DNA of 64,000 nucleotides from Escherichia phage vB_EcoD-Elw. Where the stretch lies: the sequence record OR621298. One strand, written 5' to 3'. The position numbers were made by a program, and so were the translations under genes. Shown here piece after piece: positions 1,672-59,467 of the stretch (positions are counted from its first letter, which is position 1; each line of letters opens with the position of its first letter). The notes beneath the pieces are model-generated. The model saw nothing but the letters and a program-made list of their open reading frames with translations. It was not told the DNA's origin and did not search any database.

Positions 1672-3336
1672 TTACGCAAAAAATTTACCGTTCTTAAAAT
1701 CGATCAAAGTACGCTGACCATTTGCATAGGTAATTAAATGCGTTTGTGTCCAGCTTGACGCGCCAACGTTGTAACCCATGTCCAGACTACCAGCCACGCC
1801 AGCGGTATATACCCCGCCGTAAATGCTGGCGGTATGAGTGTGCCCCGTGTTTAATTTGCCCAATTTCTTAAACTGTTTCGGATTGCCACGGCTGCCGTTT
1901 ATGCCATTGTGACCGTGTACGCCGCATTCAATGCCTGCAATTTTAAATGATTGGTCAGTCGTTAGGAAAATGGCGTTAAACTCGCAACCTGCAACCTTAC
2001 GCAGCGCATAATCTAGCACGTTGAAAGTATCGTCTTTTTCTGCAATAGCTCCGTAAATCGCGGCATTCAGGCGGTGATATAGTTCCGCGTTCGCTGGGTC
2101 GTCTTTAATGTTAGCATTACGATCATCAAGCCAACGGGATAGCGCCAAATCGTGATTCGATTCAACAATGATTGTTTGCGAGAAATCGCGCTCCATTGAT
2201 TCCAGTACGCGCCCCGTATCGATGAGATCATCCAGAACTTTATCACGTCCGGCGGCGTATTGTTTTGCTAGGAATACACCCGAAGCGCGGTTGTGATGGT
2301 TGCGTGATGTAAAATCGTGAACGTCATGGATAAACTGATATTTTGGTTTAAGAATATCAAGCAAGCTATTTTCGCCAGCCCATGACGCAATGGCACAATC
2401 ATCATCAAGTTTTTCGGCGTGTATGTCGCCATATTGCAAGCCTAAAACATGCCCCGATGTTTCATAGCATCCGGCGGGAGTAGCGCAAACATTCAGATCA
2501 TAAAACACCCCGCTTTCGTCCATTGTTTCAAGCTGGCGAACAAAAAACTCACCGTCTTCGTCGAACTCAACAATCAGCGCACCGAAGTTATGCAGTGCTT
2601 CCGCTTTCTGTCCTGCTTTCTGCTGGATGTAATTTTTAAGCGTTGCCGTGCCAGTTGAATACATGCGGCGCACTACTTCACCTTTTAAAGCTGGCACGCT
2701 TTCGGCGGTGATTTTAGCGTGACCAATTGCCAGACCTTCCAGATTAAGCGCGGTTGCAGTTTCAGCGAATCCAGAAAGCGGATAATCTGCGGTGGGCAAA
2801 ACATTAATTTCAGCCATGAAAGCAAAACGGCGATTATTCAAAAACACGTTTTTGCTGCAAATATATTTATCGAACGCGGAATCATATTTTATTCCATCCG
2901 CGCCCTCGCCATTTTGGAATCCGTTTTTATTATAAATATACTTGCTAACCAGCAAATCAGCGCCGATATATTTAGCAAATTGCTCCAGTGAGGCTAAAAA
3001 GTTTTTATGCGGGAACGTATTATTCTGAATCGATGTAATAATAAAGCGTTTGCCTTGTTTTACTTCCCAGCTTTCCACCGTGCTAGAAACAATCCCCGCC
3101 GCTTCTGGGCGCTCATCGTTTTTAATGGCTTTTGCTACTTTCGCCGCTTTCGGTTTCGCTGGTTTATTTGCTTCCAGCCAATCACAAATAGCGGTGGAAT
3201 GTTTTGGAGTATCGTAAACCGCTTTTGATATATCGTCACAAACTTCCAATTTAGTGGCGCGCAGGCGTTTACCGTAGAAATTAAAGTCAGCGGCCATTTT
3301 CAGGATAACGGTTTGTTTTTCTGCGGAAATAATCAT
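1672..3336 (-). CDS. A1: A1-like pre-early protein (calcineurin-like metallophosphoesterase fold, probable nuclease)
   Basis: 554-aa ORF; metallophosphoesterase-type motifs (GDIH, GHTH); ATG with RBS; size and position match T5 A1. Confidence 0.7.
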   Translation of the reverse strand: MIISAEKQTVILKMAADFNFYGKRLRATKLEVCDDISKAVYDTPKHSTAICDWLEANKPAKPKAAKVAKAIKNDERPEAAGIVSSTVESWEVKQGKRFIITSIQNNTFPHKNFLASLEQFAKYIGADLLVSKYIYNKNGFQNGEGADGIKYDSAFDKYICSKNVFLNNRRFAFMAEINVLPTADYPLSGFAETATALNLEGLAIGHAKITAESVPALKGEVVRRMYSTGTATLKNYIQQKAGQKAEALHNFGALIVEFDEDGEFFVRQLETMDESGVFYDLNVCATPAGCYETSGHVLGLQYGDIHAEKLDDDCAIASWAGENSLLDILKPKYQFIHDVHDFTSRNHHNRASGVFLAKQYAAGRDKVLDDLIDTGRVLESMERDFSQTIIVESNHDLALSRWLDDRNANIKDDPANAELYHRLNAAIYGAIAEKDDTFNVLDYALRKVAGCEFNAIFLTTDQSFKIAGIECGVHGHNGINGSRGNPKQFKKLGKLNTGHTHTASIYGGVYTAGVAGSLDMGYNVGASSWTQTHLITYANGQRTLIDFKNGKFFA

Positions 3337-3433
3337 AGTAATAAAACTCCATTAAAGGGATTAAAAAACGTTTGTTATTGGCAAATATTGCCAAATATAA
3401 CGCCTATTATTTGAGGCGTTATAATTTGCAACA

Positions 3434-3679
3434 TTAATTTAAAGGCATAAGGCTAGAACTAACACCACAAACAACGGCGGCAATAAAACAAATCAGACCT
3501 AAACGCTTTGCTAACTTAGATTTACGTTTAAAATAATATGAATCTAAATCATTTTGAAAATAAGCGAATAGTAATGAGGCCGCCATAATAAATAAGCCTA
3601 GAATTAAGGATTCAGTAGGGTAAAAGATCATTTTAATAACTCCAGTCAAAGGGAAATTATAGTGGGGAATATTCCCCAC
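3434..3679 (-). CDS. small membrane protein
   Basis: 81-aa ORF with two hydrophobic segments. Confidence 0.4.
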   Translation of the reverse strand: MGNIPHYNFPLTGVIKMIFYPTESLILGLFIMAASLLFAYFQNDLDSYYFKRKSKLAKRLGLICFIAAVVCGVSSSLMPLN

Positions 3680-3688
3680 TAATTAAAT

Positions 3689-4105
3689 TTATTCGCCTGC
3701 GGCTTGTTTCACTTCATCGGCAACGCCTAACAGTTGCGCCACGGCGTCCAGCGTTTCCAGTTTTGCGCTTTCCAGTGATGCCAGATCGTCGGCGTCTTTG
3801 ATAATGCCGGAATCGATAGCGTGTTTTGCAATAACGCGCACATAATGCGCTTTGCGGATTGAGCTACCGCCGCCAACTTTGCGCGGCTTATCGCTTTTCT
3901 GATACGCTTTTGCGCTGGTCAATTTTGAGCGAACGGACACGGGGGAGGCCGCGCCAACTGCTTTTGCAATCTCTTTCAGGCCGTCGCTATTTGCGAAATC
4001 TAAACCGTTTTCATTAATTAACTGCTGGTACATGGTAACAGCTTTTTGGGTGTTTTCTTCATTCCATGCAAATTTTGCGGATTTTTCGGTTTTAACGTTA
4101 GCCAT
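3689..4105 (-). CDS. A2: A2-like pre-early protein
   Basis: 138-aa ORF directly downstream of A1-like gene; RBS AGGAG; assignment by size and synteny only. Confidence 0.5.
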   Translation of the reverse strand: MANVKTEKSAKFAWNEENTQKAVTMYQQLINENGLDFANSDGLKEIAKAVGAASPVSVRSKLTSAKAYQKSDKPRKVGGGSSIRKAHYVRVIAKHAIDSGIIKDADDLASLESAKLETLDAVAQLLGVADEVKQAAGE

Positions 4106-4204
4106 GATTGTAGCTCCTATTAGTTTAATTTAAGGGATAAGATTAACATAATGTTAATCGTTATATCCCCCGAACTACTAGGGGGATATAAAGTTAACAC
4201 TAAA

Positions 4205-4456
4205 TTATAAAACAGCTTCCCATTTTTCGTTACGCTGGACAACCTTTACAACGTCGCCGGATTTAACGCGAACGCTAAAAACGGTTTTGCCGTTGTTACT
4301 CCGTTCCGTTTCAGCGTATACCGCGTCGATTGTATCGAACGGCATAAGCGCCGCGCCTTTAATGCGTTCGGCCTTTCCGGTTAATTCATCCGTTTTAGTA
4401 ACGAAAGGAATAAAAACGGATTGACCAACTTTCGGCGCGGTAATAACGTTTTGCAT
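4205..4456 (-). CDS. hypothetical protein
   Basis: 83-aa ORF from track. Confidence 0.45.
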   Translation of the reverse strand: MQNVITAPKVGQSVFIPFVTKTDELTGKAERIKGAALMPFDTIDAVYAETERSNNGKTVFSVRVKSGDVVKVVQRNEKWEAVL

Positions 4457-4654
4457 AATATAAACTCCTAGTTATTTGGGGATTGTTCCGCATTACCTGC
4501 TAGAAAGTAACAGCAGGTAATAAGTAACAATCCGCTCGCCAATATAATCAATTTAAAGAACTCCACGCAGGCCGCTATATCCCAGTTAGGGGGCGGGGCA
4601 CATTATGGTAAGTGCCGACCGTCAAATTTTATCAAGTTATCGCTCTTATCGAAC

Positions 4655-4947
4655 TGGGTACATCTTAAAGCCTATCGGCTAGGGTGTCAAACAATTTTTT
4701 GCAGTTTTTTATGATTTTCTTTTAAGTCAATCATAATATTACGCCAGATCATTTCCAGACCTTGCTGGCGGCCTTTCTTGTACTGCTTAAATCGATATTT
4801 TACCGATCTTTGCGCTACTGTCAACAAATTTTTTGTTTTGCTGTCCAGTGCCTTGCTAGGTTTACCAGTGATCAATAAAGTTTGTTTCATATCGTCGATT
4901 CCTTATAATGTATAAGTTTACCGCCGATAGGCTTTAAGATGTACCCA
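4655..4947. repeat. 25-bp perfect inverted repeat pair (4655-4679 and 4923-4947) flanking a 67-aa ORF
   Basis: tgggtacatcttaaagcctatcggc at 4655-4679 and its exact reverse complement at 4923-4947. Confidence 0.85.
4687..4890 (-). CDS. small basic protein, inverted-repeat-flanked
   Basis: 67-aa K/R-rich ORF lying entirely between the 25-bp inverted repeats. Confidence 0.4.
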   Translation of the reverse strand: MKQTLLITGKPSKALDSKTKNLLTVAQRSVKYRFKQYKKGRQQGLEMIWRNIMIDLKENHKKLQKIV

Positions 4948-5177
4948 ATTTTTAAAGAGCGCGGCGGTAAACTTCCCGCCGTGTAGTTCGTCATTGCCGC
5001 CCTACGAGATAAATAATAGGGGATTCCCGAAAATGGCGCAACCTTATTTTTGTAAAGAAATGTAAAGACAAACGCCACCGGACACCATGCGGCGACCGGG
5101 GCGCGGCGCATTAAAATTAAAAGAAACGGGCGCGCGAATACCATAAAACCCAGCAGGTTGGCAAGTAATTTTTTCAT
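4887..5177 (-). CDS. hypothetical protein with hydrophobic N-terminus
   Basis: 96-aa ORF; N-terminal signal/TM-like segment. Confidence 0.35.
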   Translation of the reverse strand: MKKLLANLLGFMVFARPFLLILMRRAPVAAWCPVAFVFTFLYKNKVAPFSGIPYYLSRRAAMTNYTAGSLPPRSLKIGYILKPIGGKLIHYKESTI

Positions 5178-5348
5178 TTATATTTGCCTTGCCCTACTTG
5201 ACAAAACTTAAAAAGCTCGTGGTAGCGATAAACGAGGGTAGGCAATGCAATGGCATGGCTAAAACTTTCATCGCGTTCTAGGGCGTTTTAGGCGCATTCT
5301 AGCCTTGTTGATAACTTATCCCCAAAAGCAAAAATGAAATTTTCCTAG

Positions 5349-5746
5349 TTATCCACTTGACTTTTATTTTCCAGTGGATAACTACTTATTTTATGAAATA
5401 AATTAATTGACTTTTATTTGTTAGTATGCATCGGAAGAATAGCAGACTAATAATTACTAGAATAATAATCATGCTGGTGGATTGTAACGGCCTAAACTAT
5501 CAGCAGACTATTAATCACGAAAAATCTCGTTAGCTAACTAACTATTTCATGATGTATAATATACATATAAATTAATGAGAAATAATAATTATAATAAATA
5601 ATAACTACAGTAAATAATAACTATAAGAAACTATCGGCCTAAGTGAGAACCACTATCATTTAAGTTATACACAAAGTTATCCACAGCACTTTTTGACTTT
5701 ACACGATAGGCGGCGATATAAGGACTTTTACACAGACTTATCCACA
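5349..5746. promoter_or_regulatory. DnaA-box cluster (5349-5357, 5373-5381 inverted, 5677-5685, 5738-5746)
   Basis: TTATCCAC(A/T) matches; the first two form a 9-bp inverted pair with a 15-bp spacer. Confidence 0.55.
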
Positions 5747-5756
5747 GGTTATTCCA

Positions 5757-5772
5757 CTGTATAAATATACAG
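5757..5772. promoter_or_regulatory. LexA-box-like palindrome CTGTATAAATATACAG
   Basis: CTGT-N8-ACAG with AT-rich spacer, next to a perfect DnaA box. Confidence 0.4.
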
Positions 5773-6039
5773 GGTAAAAAGGTAGTGTTAACAACTGCAA
5801 TCAATTTTAAGCGGCTTAAATCGCATTCTAACGAGCTAAACGCTGCGGGGTAATATTAAAGTAAAGCCTTAATGCGTCACCCTGGTGGCTTCGCCGTGGT
5901 TTGCTCTTTATTGCACCGCTGCGCGGTTAGCATAAAAATAGGCGCTAGGCAAGGAAAATAAAAAGGTAAAATAATATTTGCCTATGCTAGAAATTTACCT
6001 TTATCATTCACTCACCGATTAACGAGGGAGGCCGAACAA

Positions 6040-43954: not shown

Positions 43955-44137
43955 TTACAGACCAATTGCCAGCAGAGTGCGCAGAACAGTATCGTTACTG
44001 TTATCAATTTTAGGATTAGCACGATTTAGCAGATCAAAGATTTTCTGGATACCTGATTGACGTTCAGCCATACGACGGATACCCAGATTACGAGTAGCTT
44101 TCTTACCATTTTTACGAACATTTTTAGATACTGGCAT
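43955..44137 (-). CDS. small basic protein
   Basis: 60-aa ORF; RBS AAGGAAAA. Confidence 0.45.
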   Translation of the reverse strand: MPVSKNVRKNGKKATRNLGIRRMAERQSGIQKIFDLLNRANPKIDNSNDTVLRTLLAIGL

Positions 44138-44207
44138 ATTTGTTTTCCTTTTATTGTTTTCTCAAATTTATGAATATATTATACAGAATTTTGGAGCCGG
44201 AAGCAAA

Positions 44208-44909
44208 TCAAATTTTCATTTTTTCGATCATAGCTGCAACACAATAGCTCTCAACTAAGGCATCAAATGCTGGGTCGTGCTTAACCGGATAGATCCCATA
44301 ACGAATGGTGTCCATCTTCTCCATTTTAGCTTTTGCCCAGCTAATACCTTCAGCTTCTAGATCTTTGTAACTATAACCAGCTTGCATCCAGAGATTACGA
44401 AGAGATCGAACATTGCCCAAATTCCAGAATTTCCACGGAACTACCTCTTCATTGGTTCCAGCATGGAACGTGTTTGCCGAGTAGATAGTCATATCAAACT
44501 CTGGGCCATTGCCGTAATACAAAGCATTTTCGCCTAGAGCCAACTCCATAATATTTTGAGCCATAGAGAAGGCAGCATAGTTAGAGCCAAGTTTATTAGT
44601 GCAATGATGTTTACCATTTTGGAAGGCAATCAGCTTTGGATTACGCCCGTTCATAGCTTCCATAATGTGGATAGCAGACGGGCTATTTTTAGCTTGATCC
44701 ATCCAGAATGCTAGAGTAGATGCTGTAACTTTGGCACCAGAATTAAGTTGATCTTGTACATCCAAAGTAACAAATACTAGATCAGGGTCTTTATCAATTC
44801 CATGCATAGCCACAAAAGCGAATGAAGGCATCGCGATATGAGTAGTACCACAATCTCCTGGAGTTCCTAGAGATTCAATATCTAGCATACCAAATGGTTT
44901 TACTTTCAT
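44208..44909 (-). CDS. DEDDh-type 3'-5' exonuclease-like protein
   Basis: 233-aa ORF; N-terminal LDIESLG (Exo I-like DxE) and C-terminal HDPAFDA (Exo III-like). Confidence 0.45.
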   Translation of the reverse strand: MKVKPFGMLDIESLGTPGDCGTTHIAMPSFAFVAMHGIDKDPDLVFVTLDVQDQLNSGAKVTASTLAFWMDQAKNSPSAIHIMEAMNGRNPKLIAFQNGKHHCTNKLGSNYAAFSMAQNIMELALGENALYYGNGPEFDMTIYSANTFHAGTNEEVVPWKFWNLGNVRSLRNLWMQAGYSYKDLEAEGISWAKAKMEKMDTIRYGIYPVKHDPAFDALVESYCVAAMIEKMKI

Positions 44910-44937
44910 AACTTATCCTTTATTGTGTAGAAAACTA

Positions 44938-45174
44938 TTAAAGAGCTGTCTCTTTAATAGACTCCCACTTCTTGGGGTCTTTAAAACCAGGAAGCATATC
45001 CTCACTGACATCCCAGTTCTCTTCCATAGAAAAGTCAGGCCATTCATTCCAGCTACCTTCCAGCTCTTCATAACAGGTATCCATTATCTCATGACTAGAA
45101 AGTCGTGTATAATCCCTAGCAGACTTATGAGTGCTAGCACGGTTAAAATCATTCTTTGCTACAAAATTACGCAT
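44938..45174 (-). CDS. hypothetical acidic protein
   Basis: 78-aa ORF; RBS GGAGAAA. Confidence 0.45.
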   Translation of the reverse strand: MRNFVAKNDFNRASTHKSARDYTRLSSHEIMDTCYEELEGSWNEWPDFSMEENWDVSEDMLPGFKDPKKWESIKETAL

Positions 45175-45215
45175 AGTTTCTCCAAATAAGAGGGGCTTTC
45201 GCCCCCTGATTTAAA

Positions 45216-45431
45216 TCACTTGCCCAGCAGTTTAAGGATATTTTCCATAATAGTTTGGGCAGACTTTTCACTCTTGTTGGTTTCAGCCAACTTTAAAGCG
45301 AGTTCTTCCTGCTGTTTCTGAATATCCGCAGCAATTTTTTGATCAGCCTCAATACGAGCTTGAAGCTCATCAGTGATAGTGGTAAAGGAAGCAACGATTT
45401 CAGTAACGGAGCGTGGTTTCTTAGAGAACAT
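45216..45431 (-). CDS. hypothetical coiled-coil protein
   Basis: 71-aa ORF; RBS AAGGATA; hairpin terminator downstream. Confidence 0.45.
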   Translation of the reverse strand: MFSKKPRSVTEIVASFTTITDELQARIEADQKIAADIQKQQEELALKLAETNKSEKSAQTIMENILKLLGK

Positions 45432-45495
45432 AAAAAATATCCTTGATTAGTTAGAGAATTAGTAGATTGTAGGGGCTTCTGCCCCTATTTATCTA

Positions 45496-46011
45496 TTACT
45501 TCGCTTTACGCTTGCGAGCTGGTTTAGCAGATTTACGAGCAGAATCACCCGTGAACTTAATGCCTACACCGTAACACAGAGCACGAACGTTATCTTTGCT
45601 ATACTCTACACCGAAGATATTTGGCTTAACAGAACCAAACTGTCCACGAGCATCACGCAGTACATCTGCCGTTGGTTTGCGTTTCTGGTTAACTGATTTC
45701 TCGTAATCTTTCATGGCCATGCCATTACGAGGGAACAATTCTGCTCCAGCATTGAAACTCAGTGTTACTGGAACAGATTTGTGACCATAACCTTGTACAT
45801 AGGTCACAAGGCGGGCTACAGAACGAGTAGCGTTCTTAGCCTTCGGCTTTTGACGAATCGGGGCCGGACGATTCAGTGCCTGTGCAGCTTGAGCATCAGT
45901 AGGGTGTTTGCGCAGGTGGCGTTCCAGACGAGCTTTGCGGTTAGCCTCAGTCTGAGGGAAAGTTTTAACTGCCGGAGCTGCTTGAGTTTTTGCGTTTTTC
46001 TGCTTAGCCAT
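45496..46011 (-). CDS. basic protein, probable nucleic-acid binding
   Basis: 171-aa ORF; K/R-rich N- and C-termini; RBS AAAGGAAAA. Confidence 0.5.
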   Translation of the reverse strand: MAKQKNAKTQAAPAVKTFPQTEANRKARLERHLRKHPTDAQAAQALNRPAPIRQKPKAKNATRSVARLVTYVQGYGHKSVPVTLSFNAGAELFPRNGMAMKDYEKSVNQKRKPTADVLRDARGQFGSVKPNIFGVEYSKDNVRALCYGVGIKFTGDSARKSAKPARKRKAK

Positions 46012-46049
46012 TATTTGTTTTCCTTTTTGTTTATCAATTTATGAAGTAT

Positions 46050-46078
46050 ATTATACGGTAATTTGAAGCGTTTAGCAA
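46050..46078 (-). promoter_or_regulatory. T5-type early promoter
   Basis: -10 TATAAT, -35 TTGCTA, 17-bp spacer. Confidence 0.55.
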
Positions 46079-46086
46079 ATGAATTT

Positions 46087-46536
46087 TTAATTTATTAACT
46101 GTAAGCTTCTTTTAATTTCAGACCTTACCTGCATCAAAAGAACTCCTAAAGTATTGTCCCCGATGCCTCGGCAAACACCCCAATATGTATCTCCCCAGGT
46201 ATTTCCTTCGATCAAAGTTGCATTTTTTGTTGCTAACAGTTTGTCTCTCAAATCAGGGATTGCAAACTTTAACCGTAAAAGCTCTAGCATTACATCATCT
46301 TTTACCTTATCCCAGTCAGAGCGTAGAGTTAATTTACGTCCTCTACGTTTGGCAACTCCTGCATTTAGGGAGCGCAGTACATGAGCTACATCATCTTTTT
46401 GGTCAGATTTCATAGCCTGAAAAGCATGTTCTACAGTATCAGCATGCCATATTTCATTTAGATATTCGAAAGTAATTGGTGATAAATAAAAGTTAGATAA
46501 GAAACTATAAGTACCTTTAAATTCAGTAATCTTCAT
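46087..46536 (-). CDS. NADAR-family (YbiA-like, DUF1768) protein
   Basis: 149-aa ORF; FKGTYSFLSNFY...EHAFQAMK matches the NADAR core as I recall it. Confidence 0.6.
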   Translation of the reverse strand: MKITEFKGTYSFLSNFYLSPITFEYLNEIWHADTVEHAFQAMKSDQKDDVAHVLRSLNAGVAKRRGRKLTLRSDWDKVKDDVMLELLRLKFAIPDLRDKLLATKNATLIEGNTWGDTYWGVCRGIGDNTLGVLLMQVRSEIKRSLQLIN

Positions 46537-46817
46537 TTTTTACGCCCCGCATCTTTAGCCTCCTCGGCTGTATAGATATACTGATAAGCCCCTTTGGAGT
46601 AGGCTGGAGCAGTACACATTTTCTTACGCTCAATCTCTTCTTGAGCTTTTCTTTCGCGTTCAGCTAATTCTTCGTCCAGATAAACTAAACGTTGTTCTGG
46701 AGGAGGTGGAAGACGTGTTTCTGGCTCACCAATATTAGCCTTTCTTATTTGACGAGGTGATTGTGCACGTTTTCTCAATGGTTTAAATCCTAGTGAATTT
46801 GAGTTATAAATCCGCAT
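46533..46817 (-). CDS. hypothetical protein
   Basis: 94-aa ORF; RBS GGAGG; stop overlaps NADAR start (ATGA). Confidence 0.5.
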   Translation of the reverse strand: MRIYNSNSLGFKPLRKRAQSPRQIRKANIGEPETRLPPPPEQRLVYLDEELAERERKAQEEIERKKMCTAPAYSKGAYQYIYTAEEAKDAGRKK

Positions 46818-46893
46818 AAAGCCCTCCTCACTTTCAATACGAATATTATACTAAATTAGAGAGCTTTAAGCAAGAGAATTTTTAATTTATTTA

Positions 46894-47370
46894 TTACATC
46901 TCAGCCATTTCAGCTTCAGTAATAACTGTGTTACACAGTGCATCTACAGCTTCATTACCACTAATACCAGAATGTCCTTTAACCTTAATAAAGGTAGGAT
47001 TAGTATTATGAAAGTTGATATACTGCTGTGTTAATTTAAATGCTTCCTGCCAAAGTTCTAGATTAAGAGGAACTTCACCATCTGCTTTCTTCCAGCCTTT
47101 CCTTTGCCAAGAAAACATCCAACTTTCCATACCATTTTTGCAATAAGCAGAATCAGTATAGATAACAATTGGTCTATTATCTTTTTTAACTGACCAACGT
47201 AGAGCCTCTACAATAGCCGTGAGTTCCATCTCATTATTTGTAGTTTTAGGACTATATCCAGATTTAGAACCTAAACGATCATCGTTATCATCATAGACAA
47301 TAAATCCCCAAGCACCTGGACCTGGGTTAGACTTACAAGCACCATCTGTGTAAATGTGGAAAACCGACAT
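46894..47370 (-). CDS. rnh: ribonuclease H (RNase HI-like)
   Basis: 158-aa ORF; YTDGAC, TNNEMELTA, YTDS and C-terminal D motifs in RNase HI order. Confidence 0.8.
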   Translation of the reverse strand: MSVFHIYTDGACKSNPGPGAWGFIVYDDNDDRLGSKSGYSPKTTNNEMELTAIVEALRWSVKKDNRPIVIYTDSAYCKNGMESWMFSWQRKGWKKADGEVPLNLELWQEAFKLTQQYINFHNTNPTFIKVKGHSGISGNEAVDALCNTVITEAEMAEM

Positions 47371-47639
47371 TATTTGCTCCAGTCAATTTCAAGCCAAAAA
47401 CCTTCACGCTGCTCATACTTAGCTTCTACGACATAGCCTAGTTTAGTGAGTCGTTGCATAACGCTGTTTCTGGCGTTTTCTGAATATTCAGTTAATCCCT
47501 GAATATGGCAGTTAAATTCTTTTTCTTTGATTGCTTTATCAATCTCTACGGCAATAAGTGACTCTAGATTAAGTACTTCCTGTTTAATAACAGCAATAGT
47601 ATTTTGTTTTGCTTCTAAAGCAGATAAAAGAATAGACAT
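47370..47639 (-). CDS. hypothetical protein
   Basis: 89-aa ORF; translationally coupled to neighbours. Confidence 0.45.
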   Translation of the reverse strand: MSILLSALEAKQNTIAVIKQEVLNLESLIAVEIDKAIKEKEFNCHIQGLTEYSENARNSVMQRLTKLGYVVEAKYEQREGFWLEIDWSK

Positions 47640-47893
47640 TAGTTTTCGCCTTCTATAATTACCCTAGTCGCTGGAGGAATTGGCGGCATAGGAGGAATAC
47701 ATGGTTGACCTCTCTGTGCATCATTTAGTACTCTTGGCGGTTCAGGTCTAATTGCCTTTAATTCCTTTTCTAGGAATTGTTCTAACGCCCGTTCTACAAA
47801 ATGATCGAAAGGTAAGTGATAATACTGAGACAGAGCTAAGAACCTACGTTCTTGACTTTGTGTTAAATAAACTTTCTTTTTAAATAGTCCCAT
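47639..47893 (-). CDS. hypothetical protein
   Basis: Track ORF trimmed to M15 (the N-terminal 14 codons are the promoter read backwards); RBS GGAGA. Confidence 0.45.
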   Translation of the reverse strand: MGLFKKKVYLTQSQERRFLALSQYYHLPFDHFVERALEQFLEKELKAIRPEPPRVLNDAQRGQPCIPPMPPIPPATRVIIEGEN

Positions 47894-47917
47894 AGTTGTC
47901 TCCGATTTATAAAATAT

Positions 47918-47946
47918 ATTATATCTAAATTTCACTCAGTAAGCAA
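47918..47946 (-). promoter_or_regulatory. T5-type early promoter
   Basis: -10 TATAAT, -35 TTGCTT, 17-bp spacer. Confidence 0.55.
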
Positions 47947-47985
47947 ATGAAATTTAAATATAATAGCCCCGAAGGGCTATTTGAG

Positions 47986-48825
47986 TTAAGAAGACATCTT
48001 AGCTTTAAGAGCTGGGTGAGGATCGTACCCCTCTAAATGGAATGACCAAGCTGCAGTATTATTCTCCAGTAAATCGTAGAGATCTACAAATTCTGGCATT
48101 ACTAGAGTTGGTAAAGAACGAGGTTTACGTTTTACCTGTTCTTCTACCTGTTCCATATGGTCATTATAGATATGAGTATCACCGCCACTAAAGATAAGGT
48201 AGCGAGGTTTTAATCCAGTCAGTTTTGCCAGGATATGTGTTAATAAAGCATAACTAGCAATATTGAAAGGTAAACCGAGGAAACAATCCACAGAGCGTTG
48301 TGTCCATTTAAGATCTAGGTATCCATCGTTACTTACATAGCACTGGAAGCCGTAGTGACAAGGTGGTAATGCCATTTTATCAAGTTCAGCTACGTTCCAC
48401 GCAGAAACTAGATGTCTGCGGCCATGAGGATTATTCTTGAGTCCTTCAATAAGTTCTAGAATCTGATCTCGCCCACCAAAGTTACGCCACTGTTTACCAT
48501 ATACCGGTCCTAGATTACCCTTATCATACCCCATACTTATAGCTTGGTCTTCATAATTTGGAGTCCAGATGGTCCACTGTCCTTCGTCACGACCAAATGT
48601 GAATACACGTAGATCATGGAGATTTGTGGAACCAGACAAGAACCATAAGAGTTCTCCTACTACGGATTTCCAAGCTAGACGTTTAGTGGTTACAGCTGGG
48701 AATCCCTCACGTAGATCGAATTTAGCGTAAGAATCAAAAATTGAAACTGTGCCTGTTCCTGTACGGTCATTACGGGGTTCACCTAGTAAAATTACATCTG
48801 TCAAAATTTTTAAGTATTGTTGCAT
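47986..48825 (-). CDS. thyA: thymidylate synthase
   Basis: 279-aa ORF; ThyA active-site region LPPCHYGFQCYV and overall ThyA-like sequence. Confidence 0.9.
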   Translation of the reverse strand: MQQYLKILTDVILLGEPRNDRTGTGTVSIFDSYAKFDLREGFPAVTTKRLAWKSVVGELLWFLSGSTNLHDLRVFTFGRDEGQWTIWTPNYEDQAISMGYDKGNLGPVYGKQWRNFGGRDQILELIEGLKNNPHGRRHLVSAWNVAELDKMALPPCHYGFQCYVSNDGYLDLKWTQRSVDCFLGLPFNIASYALLTHILAKLTGLKPRYLIFSGGDTHIYNDHMEQVEEQVKRKPRSLPTLVMPEFVDLYDLLENNTAAWSFHLEGYDPHPALKAKMSS

Positions 48826-49358
48826 TAATAAGTAACCAATTCCTGTACAAATCGCAGGCTGTTATCACTGTTTGCGCCAACTGCATAGACTAATCGAGTG
48901 GATTCATAGTTATAATCCAGTATCATACTATCTAGGTGTGTATCTGCCTCTAGCTTCTGTTCGCTAAAGATTGTAGATACAAAAGCGCTTTCAATATGCC
49001 CATGTTGGTACATTTCTAGAAGAAGATTAGCCCCACCTAGAACTACTGTTTGTTGATCTTTTAGAAAAGTAGGTAATGTATCACCTATCATTGATATGGG
49101 AGTGTAAATATCATGTGTAATATCGTCTGGCAGTGGACGATCAGCACGAATAAATAGGTCAGAAGCTCCAATCATACGTTCTCTAACGGCGTATGGAAGA
49201 GCTAAATAAGTACCCGCACCAATGATAATATTATCTGGATTCAACACGTCCAGTTGAGAATAGAAAGCATCTAGTTCTTCTTTGAAGGAACCCCATGGAA
49301 GTTTACCGCGGAGGCCGAACTCCCCATTCGGCCCAACTGCATACATTGCTGTAATCAT
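48825..49358 (-). CDS. dihydrofolate reductase
   Basis: 177-aa ORF; N-terminal MITAMYAVGPNGEFG...LPW pattern; coupled to thyA and nrdB. Confidence 0.75.
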   Translation of the reverse strand: MITAMYAVGPNGEFGLRGKLPWGSFKEELDAFYSQLDVLNPDNIIIGAGTYLALPYAVRERMIGASDLFIRADRPLPDDITHDIYTPISMIGDTLPTFLKDQQTVVLGGANLLLEMYQHGHIESAFVSTIFSEQKLEADTHLDSMILDYNYESTRLVYAVGANSDNSLRFVQELVTY

Positions 49359-56961: not shown

Positions 56962-57151
56962 GGGTTTAAACTCCGCTTTGGAAAACGCATTAATGCAGCA
57001 CTGGGAAACTGGCTATAAGGATGGTGTTGAATCCTGCGCTACTATGCTAGAAGTTATTGCTAATACCTTAATGGAGAAAGGCAATAAAGAATTAGCTGAG
57101 CTATTAGACAGTATTGGGCAAAACTTCAGAGAACAGGTGAAAAATGCGTAG
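56930..57151 (+). CDS. hypothetical protein
   Basis: 73-aa ORF. Confidence 0.4.
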   Translation: MAFSKPMLPDKGLNSALENALMQHWETGYKDGVESCATMLEVIANTLMEKGNKELAELLDSIGQNFREQVKNA

Positions 57152-57968
57152 ATTAATTATTATTAGCGGTGCAGGTTTGAGTGTTGAAAGTGGTGTACGA
57201 GCTTTTCGTACTGATACTGCTAGTGGTAAAGCACTGTGGGATGATTATGATCTAGAAGAAGTATGTAATATTCATGCCTTTCGTGGTAATTTTTATCATA
57301 AAACCCATATGTTTTACAACAAGCGTCGTGAAGAGCTAAAAACTGTTGAACCTAACCTTGCGCATCTTCGTATTGGTGAGTGGTATAAACAATACCCAGG
57401 TCAAGTAGTAAACTTGACTACCAATGTTGATGACCTTATTGAACGTGCTGGCGTTCCACATAGTGACATTCTGCACATTCACGGATATTTAAAAGAGGTT
57501 GTTGTAGCTGACAGCTACAATAGTAGTAATAAACGAATTATTGATGTTGGGTATAACTCTATTGACCCAGATGATTATAAATGGGTTAAACCTAATGTAA
57601 TCTTCTTTGGTGAGCATGCTCCAGCATATACAGAAATGTACAATGTTTTTGATGGTATTACCAGTCAAGATATGATCATTGTGGTTGGTTGCTCTAACCA
57701 AGTAATTAACTTCTACTGGGAATTATTTCCTGTTCTTAATTTGACTGCTGCCAAATTAATGGTAGTTAACTACTATGATAGTGCCCTAGCGACAGAGCCG
57801 GGCTACCAAGGTATGACTCGTAGTGAGATGTACCAGCTGGAAGAACGCGGTATCCCTTACTGGAGTAAAGGGGCTGTAGATGCCTTCAGTGACCCTGATT
57901 TTATTGCTCGTGTAGAAGCTCATCTAGAGGGTAGACCTTATATGCCGGGGAAACAAATATGTCCATAA
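57144..57968 (+). CDS. Sir2-family NAD-dependent deacylase/ADP-ribosyltransferase-like protein
   Basis: 274-aa ORF; N-terminal GAGLSVESGVRAFR matches the Sir2 NAD-binding motif. Confidence 0.6.
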   Translation: MRRLIIISGAGLSVESGVRAFRTDTASGKALWDDYDLEEVCNIHAFRGNFYHKTHMFYNKRREELKTVEPNLAHLRIGEWYKQYPGQVVNLTTNVDDLIERAGVPHSDILHIHGYLKEVVVADSYNSSNKRIIDVGYNSIDPDDYKWVKPNVIFFGEHAPAYTEMYNVFDGITSQDMIIVVGCSNQVINFYWELFPVLNLTAAKLMVVNYYDSALATEPGYQGMTRSEMYQLEERGIPYWSKGAVDAFSDPDFIARVEAHLEGRPYMPGKQICP

Positions 57969-58141
57969 TTAAATCTGTGTATACACACCCTGATGATATA
58001 TTTGTATGGGCGGACGGTAGTTGGTGTTATCGCTGTGAGTTGTGGGAAATGGACTATAAATCCGATGACTATGGTGTTATATATGTGGATACGGTTGAGT
58101 ATGATACGTTCTTAGAAAGGAACAAAAATGGAAATAAGTAA
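57959..58141 (+). CDS. hypothetical protein
   Basis: 60-aa ORF. Confidence 0.35.
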   Translation: MSIIKSVYTHPDDIFVWADGSWCYRCELWEMDYKSDDYGVIYVDTVEYDTFLERNKNGNK

Positions 58142-58634
58142 TACTCCAATTATTTTTCTAGACATTGATGGGGTGCTCAATTCGAGCATCTCCCACCATC
58201 ATGCACCTGATGATGAAAAGATTTTCTTTGGAAGTGACTGGGTTTTCAAACCACTTCTCAAGGCTTTTCAGGACTTTATTCGTCCTTCTCCGATAATGAT
58301 TGTTGGAGTATCCTCATGGTTCTCTGTCAGGAATGAGATGGAGAACGTTCAGATTATGACCGGATTAGGTCTTATCGATCGTTTTCTTGGTACAACGGAT
58401 TTTACCGGGGGTGGATTATCTAGGGGTAATTCTGTTCTTCGCTTCGTTGAAAAGCATAAGCTCAAACATTGGTGTGTGCTGGATGATGCCGGTGCTATGA
58501 TGTATCAGTATCCAACGGTTATAGTCAATGGTAGAACAGGAATAAATCTTCAGGATTTAAAAGCTGTTAGCTATATGCTAGAATTTAGCCCAGATCTTGA
58601 AATGTGTAAATCCTTACAACAATTTAAGGTGTAA
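58128..58634 (+). CDS. HAD-superfamily hydrolase-like protein
   Basis: 168-aa ORF; motif I FLDIDGVLN at N-terminus. Confidence 0.5.
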   Translation: MEISNTPIIFLDIDGVLNSSISHHHAPDDEKIFFGSDWVFKPLLKAFQDFIRPSPIMIVGVSSWFSVRNEMENVQIMTGLGLIDRFLGTTDFTGGGLSRGNSVLRFVEKHKLKHWCVLDDAGAMMYQYPTVIVNGRTGINLQDLKAVSYMLEFSPDLEMCKSLQQFKV

Positions 58635-58636
58635 AT

Positions 58637-59065
58637 ATGTTCAATAATGTATTCTCTAAAGAAGCTAACCCAATTTTGGTTAACTTTTGGCGTACTCTCC
58701 CGGCTAGCCTGTATAATGAGGCTATTAACTCCTTGAAAATATGGTGTGAGAATAACGAAATCTCCTTTGCTTTTAAAGATGATATTGATGAGGCCCCCTG
58801 TATTGGTCTAGTTGTGCAGGTAGAGGAGGGTCTTGAAGAGATTGTGGGCTGGAAAGAGTTAGACGAAATGGGCTTAGTTTTTGCGTTAAATTATAAGCTG
58901 TTTATGCCTGCTAAGCATCGCCTAGTTGTTAACTATAAAACTAGTGAATCTCCTGGTTTTCAGGTTAATGAACGTTATGGTTGGTCTTACTCACCGGAAG
59001 AAGTAAATGATGGTATCCAAAAACTTCGTCGTTTTGGTTATCAAATTCCGGGTTTAACCGCCTAA
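58637..59065 (+). CDS. hypothetical protein (paralog of next gene)
   Basis: 142-aa ORF; shares PCIG, MGL..ALN and GYQIPGL-type motifs with 59075..59467. Confidence 0.5.
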   Translation: MFNNVFSKEANPILVNFWRTLPASLYNEAINSLKIWCENNEISFAFKDDIDEAPCIGLVVQVEEGLEEIVGWKELDEMGLVFALNYKLFMPAKHRLVVNYKTSESPGFQVNERYGWSYSPEEVNDGIQKLRRFGYQIPGLTA

Positions 59066-59074
59066 GGGGGCATA

Positions 59075-59467
59075 ATGGAACAAGTATATTGGCGTCAGAT
59101 TGATCCTAGTTTGGTGAAGCGTGCGGAGAAGCTGCTACAACGTTGGTTGGTGGTAAGACAAGTCTCCTTCACTTTTCCGGAGCAGCAAACGGATGATCCA
59201 TGCATTGGCGTTTTCCTGTCTGGATATGCCGGGGAATGGGAATTGGATTGGAATGAATTGTCTGCTATGGGCTTGATTGTTGCCCTAAACTTCTCTATAT
59301 TCCATCCACGTGGTTTGGCCATATGTCGTGTGCCTGATGACGGTTGTTCGCCCCATCTTTTACAGGTGGAAGATGATATTTGGGAGTACACTCCAGATAT
59401 TCTCGCAGAAGCTAAAGAACAATTAAATCGTGTTGGGATTTATGTTCCGGGCTTAAATGATGGATGA
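59075..59467 (+). CDS. hypothetical protein (paralog of previous gene)
   Basis: 130-aa ORF; RBS AAGGGGG. Confidence 0.5.
   Translation: MEQVYWRQIDPSLVKRAEKLLQRWLVVRQVSFTFPEQQTDDPCIGVFLSGYAGEWELDWNELSAMGLIVALNFSIFHPRGLAICRVPDDGCSPHLLQVEDDIWEYTPDILAEAKEQLNRVGIYVPGLNDG

Follow-up and report, generated by a model that had tools for sequence, protein, structure and literature searches.

The DNA analysed here (the window) is a stretch of 64,000 nucleotides from Escherichia phage vB_EcoD-Elw (OR621298). Megablast of its positions 44000-49000 matched 448 phage records, the best match being Escherichia phage vB_EcoS_HdH2 (Demerecviridae, Markadamsvirinae, Tequintavirus) with 96.3% identity over the full 5 kb. 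Judged by sequence similarity, the window is that of a T5-like phage belonging to Tequintavirus. The genes of the 44000-49000 stretch are all situated on the minus strand, and the stretch includes, in the order of transcription, the following features:

nrdA, nrdB, frd and then thy (thy at 47986-48825), minus strand: first in the order of transcription
47639-47935 and then 47370-47639, minus strand: two small ORFs after thy
46894-47370, minus strand: RNase H gene (rnh), after the small ORFs
46845..46873, minus strand: putative sigma-70 promoter TTGCTT-17-TATAAT with an AT-rich upstream stretch, predicted to drive the T5.090-like gene and the NADAR gene as a pair
46533..46817, minus strand: T5.090 homologue of 94 aa (phrog_4593, function unknown), directly upstream of the NADAR gene
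46533..46536, minus strand: ATGA start/stop overlap, the ATG at 46536-46534 lying over the upstream TGA at 46535-46533
46087..46536, minus strand: adfN-type NADAR gene of 149 aa (identified by ORF, Pfam, identity with the Bas33 and Bas32 proteins, AlphaFold2 and Foldseek)
46050..46078, minus strand: putative P-H207-type promoter TTGCTA-17-TATAAT, right after the NADAR stop codon and predicted to drive the DUF7022 gene
45496..46011, minus strand: DUF7022 gene, homologue of T5.089 (Pfam PF22887, E=6e-77; HdH2 annotation note)
downstream of the DUF7022 gene, minus strand: an ORF of 71 aa and then a terminator-like hairpin at 45206-45191
44208-44909, minus strand: Rv2179c-like exonuclease gene, last in the stretch

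The last of these genes is named 'putative metallopeptidase' in many records; its Pfam match to the 3'-5' exoribonuclease Rv2179c-like family (E=4.7e-8) supports the RefSeq label 'exonuclease'.

The NADAR gene is an intact ORF with an ATG start. The initial annotation had given exactly its coordinates, 46087-46536, with the strand missing, and the two motifs quoted there were located in the product, FLSNFY at residues 12-17 and EHAFQAMK at residues 36-43. The HMM search that had been proposed as a check gave a clear result: PF08719 (NADAR/DUF1768) was the single Pfam match in hmmscan (E=6.3e-22, 79 bits, gathering cut-off 35.1), spanning residues 9-142 of the protein and positions 9-163 of the 163 in the profile, which is far beyond chance. 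The protein is not a member of the NCBIfam family NF053876 'NADAR family anti-phage protein', against which it scored 45 bits with the cut-off at 240. The plus-strand ORFs 46154-46384 and 46185-46415 inside the gene are mechanical and had no supporting evidence. The base composition of the gene (GC 36.2%, GC3 27.3%) resembles that of the neighbouring rnh (36.7% and 24.5%, respectively), and recent foreign acquisition is thus unsupported by composition.

The 94-aa product of the preceding gene is 91% identical to T5.090 over 92 aa, differing only at the C-terminus, and had no Pfam or NCBIfam match. The 4-nt overlap between this gene and the NADAR gene is annotated identically in HdH2, Bas32, Bas33 and WP85. 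The sole strong SD-like element, GAGGAGG, is situated about 20 nt 5' of the NADAR ATG, and a weak GGGG is present at -13 to -8. Because of the ATGA overlap, and because GAGGAGG is too distant to serve the ATG, the translation of NADAR is likely to be coupled to that of the T5.090-like gene.

The promoter at 46845..46873 matches almost base for base the promoter annotated before T5.090 in NC_005859, and the one at 46050..46078, found by a scan, corresponds in the alignment to 'promoter P-H 207', annotated before T5.089 in T5. P-H207 counts among the classical strong early promoters of T5. The simple promoter scan detected 15 promoter-like sites when 15.8 were expected from shuffled sequence, and the promoter assignments therefore rest on the alignment to the annotated T5 promoters; the scan missed the promoter at 46845..46873 because the -35 hexamer matches the consensus at three of six positions. 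Homology supports the early operon in which the gene had been placed initially, as the gene lies in the rnh/thy/frd/nrd block of the T5 map and between two annotated T5 promoters. From this position we infer that the NADAR gene would be expressed early.

A phmmer search against PDB sequences matched E. coli YbiA (2B3W, E=2.8e-15) and the NADAR of Phytophthora nicotianae (8BAU, E=6.8e-7). The latter structure was solved with ADP-ribose, and its contact and catalytic residues have been published (PMC11543638). The chain index of 8BAU equals the published numbering +2, which was checked on K75, R79, W89, R93, E125, D130 and W133. A gap in the phmmer alignment put E36 of the window protein opposite F, and for E36 and K43 the segments VEHAFQAMK and SEQYFMKRK were re-registered by hand with the offset +2. 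The residues of the P. nicotianae NADAR correspond to those of the window protein as follows:

E43 to E36 (hand-corrected phmmer alignment)
K50 to K43 (hand-corrected phmmer alignment)
K75 to K63 (phmmer alignment)
R79 to R67 (phmmer alignment)
W89 to W75 (phmmer alignment)
R93 to K79 (phmmer alignment)
E125 to E110 (phmmer alignment)
D130 to D116 (phmmer alignment)
W133 to W119 (phmmer alignment)

The catalytic Glu and Lys of NADARs are E43/K50 in the P. nicotianae protein and E88/K95 in the NADAR of E. coli C7 (PMC11543638). A search of a large protein collection found 1035 relatives at E<=1e-5, and PF08719 was present in every relative among the matches listed. Conservation was studied from an alignment of 54 sequences, consisting of the window protein and 53 relatives with 48-59% identity. 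Of the catalytic and contact residues, E36, K43, E110, D116 and W119 were invariant in this alignment and K63 and W75 at least 90% conserved. Also the motif residues were strongly constrained: L13, S14, N15, E36, Q40 and K43 were invariant, and F12, F16, H37 and A41 at least 90% conserved.

The AlphaFold2 model of the 149-aa protein, built on the same alignment, had a pLDDT of 97.5 and a pTM of 0.91. In Foldseek against the PDB its significant matches were NADAR structures only, 2B3W (TMq 0.82, 37% identity) and 8BAU (TMq 0.78); the third match, the DarT1-associated NADAR of G. lovleyi (8BAT), was weak (TMq 0.52, E=0.4). The model has the YbiA-type alpha+beta fold, a helical core flanked by two small beta-sheets, and superposes on both YbiA and 8BAU. 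The NADAR fold, on which the initial assignment depended, is thus present in the structure prediction, and the membership of the product in the NADAR family is agreed upon by the Pfam match, the sequence matches to 2B3W and 8BAU, and the AlphaFold2 and Foldseek results.

At the position of the last strand that is diagnostic of the subfamily, both the P. nicotianae NADAR (E125) and the window protein (E110) have Glu, and this residue is invariant in the family alignment. The window protein consists of the bare NADAR core and is neither DarG1-like nor T4 gp30.3-like. The antitoxins of the DarG1/BC4488 family (E. coli C7, G. lovleyi 8BAT) belong to the same superfamily, act on guanine-ADP-ribose in ssDNA and neutralise DarT1. 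However, they have 229-234 aa, a catalytic Asp (D171), a basic N-terminal extension with a proposed role in DNA binding, and a darT1 gene next to them (PMC11543638). In the window protein the domain begins from residue ~9 with no N-terminal extension, Glu takes the place of Asp, and the gene has no toxin neighbour, so that the Asp, the length of ~230 aa with a basic extension and the darT1 adjacency of the DarG1/BC4488 group are all lacking. T4 gp30.3 (AdfN^T4) is likewise an orphan phage NADAR, countering DarTG1 by taking ADP-ribose off DNA guanine, but it has 208 aa and groups with the DarG1-type NADARs; at the diagnostic position it has His, where the 149-aa window protein retains E110. The closest solved folds, E. 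coli YbiA and the P. nicotianae NADAR, share with the window protein the bare core, the diagnostic Glu and the ADP-ribose-binding residues.

Proteins of two BASEL phages proved to be effectively the same as the window protein. Locus tags identify Escherichia phage IrisVonRoten as Bas32 and HildyBeyeler as Bas33. The Bas33 protein (bas33_0070) is identical at 149 of 149 positions and the Bas32 protein (bas32_0066) at 147 of 149, the differences, T9A and K104E, lying outside the catalytic set. In both phages the NADAR gene has the same slot, the same 4-nt ATGA overlap and the same neighbours as in the window, and the difference is limited to the host phage genome; the 5 kb surrounding the gene in the window reaches an identity of no more than about 96-98% with phages in the database. 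In the available text of PMC11825919 the proteins of Bas32 and Bas33 are described as identical, whereas T9A and K104E separate their deposited sequences.

According to the available parts of the publications of Johannesman, Carlson & LeRoux (Johannesman et al., bioRxiv 2024, PMC11257639; Nat Commun 2025, PMC11825919), the Bas32 protein was found by DELTA-BLAST and named AdfN^Bas32 (anti-DarT factor NADAR). In the same text, AdfN^Bas32 neutralises the DarT1 toxin in E. coli without phage, and its ectopic expression brings RB69, T5 and Bas25 back to full titre on DarTG1 hosts, but does not rescue T5 against the thymine-modifying DarTG2 (PMC11825919). T4 gp30.3, as published, does not neutralise DarT1 outside T-even infection and rescues T5 very modestly, whereas the Bas32 twin of the window protein works without phage. 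The initial annotation had suggested a role in counter-defence against DarT-type toxins in general. For DarT1/DarTG1 this agrees with the published AdfN^Bas32, and for DarTG2, where the available text of PMC11825919 reports no rescue, it does not. The interpretation was right but had already been demonstrated, as the near-identical AdfN^Bas32 is published as an anti-DarT1 factor; the anti-DarT1 role of this NADAR is already known and is re-identified here, and no new biology beyond the published work on AdfN is revealed.

The finding matters mainly for annotation, as the gene deserves the label AdfN-type anti-DarTG1 factor. Among the hits, the record of Salmonella phage WP85 is the only one already annotating the gene as 'antitoxin-like enzyme, NADAR superfamily'. 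Other GenBank names for the same gene are 'swarming motility protein YbiA', 'GTP cyclohydrolase II', 'glycosylase', 'ADP-ribosyltransferase', 'DUF1768' and 'hypothetical protein'. The T5-like NADAR gene was also present in two short records bearing the name 'Listeria phage' (OR848833, 3468 bp; OR847649, 2093 bp), a name that suggests contamination or a labelling error.

What can be described in new detail is the gene as a cassette. T5 has no NADAR gene; there P-H207 and then T5.089 come directly after T5.090. In a pairwise alignment the window and T5 were nearly identical across the promoter and most of T5.090 and diverged over some 60 nt at the end of T5.090; after these the window had about 450 extra bases, and the homology was back at AAAAATTCATTTGCTA, directly after the NADAR stop codon. 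The NADAR gene is thus an accessory cassette of about 450 bp that lies precisely between the T5.090 homologue and P-H207. With at least 97.8% nucleotide identity it was present in 95 phage records, the majority of them from Salmonella and Escherichia. Set against the 448 records matching the surrounding 5 kb, this means that about one in five T5-like phages of the collection has the gene. The absence of the cassette from T5 fits the published inhibition of T5 by DarTG1, and its presence or absence predicts which T5-like phages, including candidates for therapy against E. coli and Salmonella, should escape DarTG1.

Another NADAR of 149 aa, 60% identical, was found in the Epseptimavirus UTK0009 (Salmonella phage vB_SenS_UTK0009, OQ359889; positions 2489-2938 of the extracted locus L006). 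There the slot is different, the gene lying directly after rnh, between rnh and the T5.090 homologue. This divergent NADAR in another slot indicates that the Markadamsvirinae have at least two NADAR alleles and two insertion sites. The T5.090-like gene was considered as a dedicated partner of NADAR and rejected, as T5 has T5.090 without NADAR and in UTK0009 the NADAR gene is on the other side of the T5.090 homologue.

The two small minus-strand ORFs between thy and rnh, 47370-47639 (89 aa) and 47639-47935 (98 aa), belong to phrog_13270 and phrog_17630, both of unknown function, and neither had a Pfam or NCBIfam match. This position holds no gene in T5 or Bas32, one in Bas33 and two in the window. 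Judged by this variation, it is a second variable accessory slot by the NADAR cassette, and other anti-defence genes could be found there. The plus strand of the window includes, at 57144-59467, a row of genes with links to NAD/ADP-ribose or to RNA repair:

57144-57968, plus strand: SIR2-family protein
58128-58634, plus strand: HAD_SAK_2 domain protein, counterpart of T5.105 in T5
58637-59065 and 59075-59467, plus strand: two DUF7415 proteins

T5.105 is annotated as 'Sir2', which looks like a misannotation.

The neighbours of the NADAR gene, the T5.090-like gene, the DUF7022 gene, the RNase H gene and the small ORFs, show it to be an orphan: no ART domain was found among them with Pfam, NCBIfam or PHROG, and there is no adjacent toxin gene and no darT. 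The product of 46087..46536 is very probably an orphan antitoxin-like guanine-ADP-ribose DNA glycohydrolase of the AdfN type, in its Markadamsvirinae form. With high confidence the results can be read jointly as an accessory, AdfN-type orphan enzyme that counters DarT1 by guanine de-ADP-ribosylation. It is known that NADARs hydrolyse the guanine-ADP-ribose which DarT1 produces, and the catalytic residues involved have been defined (Schuller et al. 2023, PMC11543638). Transcription of the window gene would start from T5 early promoters of the host type, within the block for nucleotide metabolism and replication, and translation of the gene would probably take place by re-initiation from the T5.090-like gene via the ATGA overlap. 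When the phage infects a DarTG1 host, DarT1 would ADP-ribosylate guanines in the phage DNA and thereby block replication. The NADAR core would bind the ADP-ribose moiety through K63, R67, W75, K79, D116 and W119 and hydrolyse the ribose-guanine N-glycosidic bond using E36, K43 and E110, and with the unmodified base restored phage replication could resume. As the support for AdfN^Bas32 activity in the available text of PMC11825919 is in vivo and from ectopic expression, we infer both the catalytic chemistry of this protein and its necessity in the native phage.

The specificity of NADARs is narrower in vivo than in vitro (Cihlova et al. 2024, PMC11125620). E. coli YbiA, also a bare NADAR core, is a guanine-ADP-ribose hydrolase in vitro but fails against DarT1 in vivo (PMC11125620), and therefore the fold and the active site alone do not guarantee an anti-DarT1 phenotype. 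As the bare core of AdfN^Bas32 neutralises DarT1 in vivo and the equally bare E. coli YbiA does not, a specificity determinant other than the DarG1-type N-terminal DNA-binding extension is suggested.

The AdfN model could be extended, compatibly, so that the enzyme is a broader base de-ADP-ribosylase having DarT1 as one target among several, the others being guanine or cytidine modifications of DNA or RNA made by YarT-like, pierisin/ScARP-like or undiscovered ARTs. We regard this as possible but tentative. NADARs of several subfamilies strip ADP-ribose from RNA guanosine (PMC11833690) and, according to the available part of PMC12945103, some NADARs, including YbiA-type ones, remove it from cytidine; the window protein has the YbiA-type Glu, E110. 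The nearest parallel is the YbiA of Chondromyces crocatus, a bare YbiA-type core serving as the antidote to YarT, a nucleic-acid ADP-ribosylating toxin unrelated to DarT (PMC11125620), although it is encoded in a bacterial toxin-antitoxin operon and the window gene is a phage orphan. Also the authors of the AdfN paper suggest that such counter-defences may detoxify other ART-based defences. Against this, NADARs are markedly specific in vivo despite their shared activity in vitro (PMC11125620). The full form of the proposal, a 149-aa core erasing both guanine and cytidine modifications from both DNA and RNA and shielding T5-like phages from several ART defences, is somewhat more doubtful still.

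The remaining explanations would replace the guanine de-ADP-ribosylase by another activity, and each is far less probable. In sequence, the best match among solved structures is E. coli YbiA (37% identity), the housekeeping N-glycosidase of riboflavin intermediates that gives no protection against DarT1 in vivo (PMC11125620). Were the window protein such an enzyme, clearing reactive intermediates of the riboflavin pathway, the labels 'GTP cyclohydrolase II' and 'swarming motility protein YbiA' would point roughly in the right direction, and many database records do bear names of this kind. The NCBIfam equivalog domain for the riboflavin N-glycosidase, TIGR02464, matched with E=2.6e-18, but its 66.8 bits stay below the curated cut-off of 73.7, and no riboflavin genes are present nearby; on these grounds the identification was rejected. 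Furthermore, the available text of PMC11825919 demonstrates the anti-DarT1 phenotype directly, and its tree places the Bas32 protein beside archaeal NADARs, outside the housekeeping YbiA group and not with AdfN^T4, all of which makes a housekeeping role extremely unlikely. The 'YbiA-like' of the initial annotation therefore holds for the fold and the diagnostic Glu, but not for membership in the housekeeping group, from which both the TIGR02464 score and the published tree, as far as it is available, separate the protein. Action on soluble low-molecular-weight ADP-ribose derivatives, such as immune signals or NAD+ breakdown products, in place of DNA adducts has been proposed for phage NADARs in general on the basis of comparative genomics (Iyer et al. 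2022, PMC9503650), and the SIR2-family and HAD_SAK_2 genes of the same phage bring NAD/ADP-ribose biology into the genome. This is nevertheless very unlikely, as in the available text of PMC11825919 the near-identical AdfN^Bas32 counteracts a toxin that modifies DNA, and does so in cells free of phage, and degradation of a signal does not explain a base-specific rescue from DarTG1 but not DarTG2. Stoichiometric binding of DarT1 in the manner of AdfA, without catalysis, would accord with the in vivo neutralisation that the same text describes as the evidence for AdfN^Bas32, and the DarG antitoxin of the DarT2 system does bind its toxin as well (PMC11125620). [quoted passage not shown]

Relatives of the AdfN-type protein were detected also in cellular genomes. 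When prokaryotic species were scanned with one genome each, 517 relatives were found, the best 80 of which were 44-54% identical to the window protein and came mostly from bacteria (Bryobacterales, Planctomycetota, Clostridia and Pseudomonadales), with one Pacearchaeota MAG. The neighbouring ORF clusters were noisy in the high-GC genomes, and only neighbours confirmed by Pfam were counted. Bryobacterales have several NADAR copies per chromosome, four or more in one case, and in this group DUF3560 genes come after NADAR (for example OZ241991.1, positions 3001-5955 of loci L009 and L010). In seven loci of Clostridia, neighbour clustering together with Pfam gave the gene order NADAR, LPD11, YodL-like, Macro domain (for example Sellimonas catena NZ_CP173695, positions 3001-5399 of locus L053). 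The relatives beside Macro, LPD11, YodL and DUF3560 genes were 47-50% identical to the window protein. Such neighbours are typical members of the 'polyvalent protein' repertoire that conjugative elements and phages use for anti-defence, and these bacterial neighbourhoods fit a counter-defence role of the NADAR clade on mobile elements generally. The NADAR-Macro modules also echo the pairing of AdfN (NADAR) with AdfM (macrodomain) in T4.
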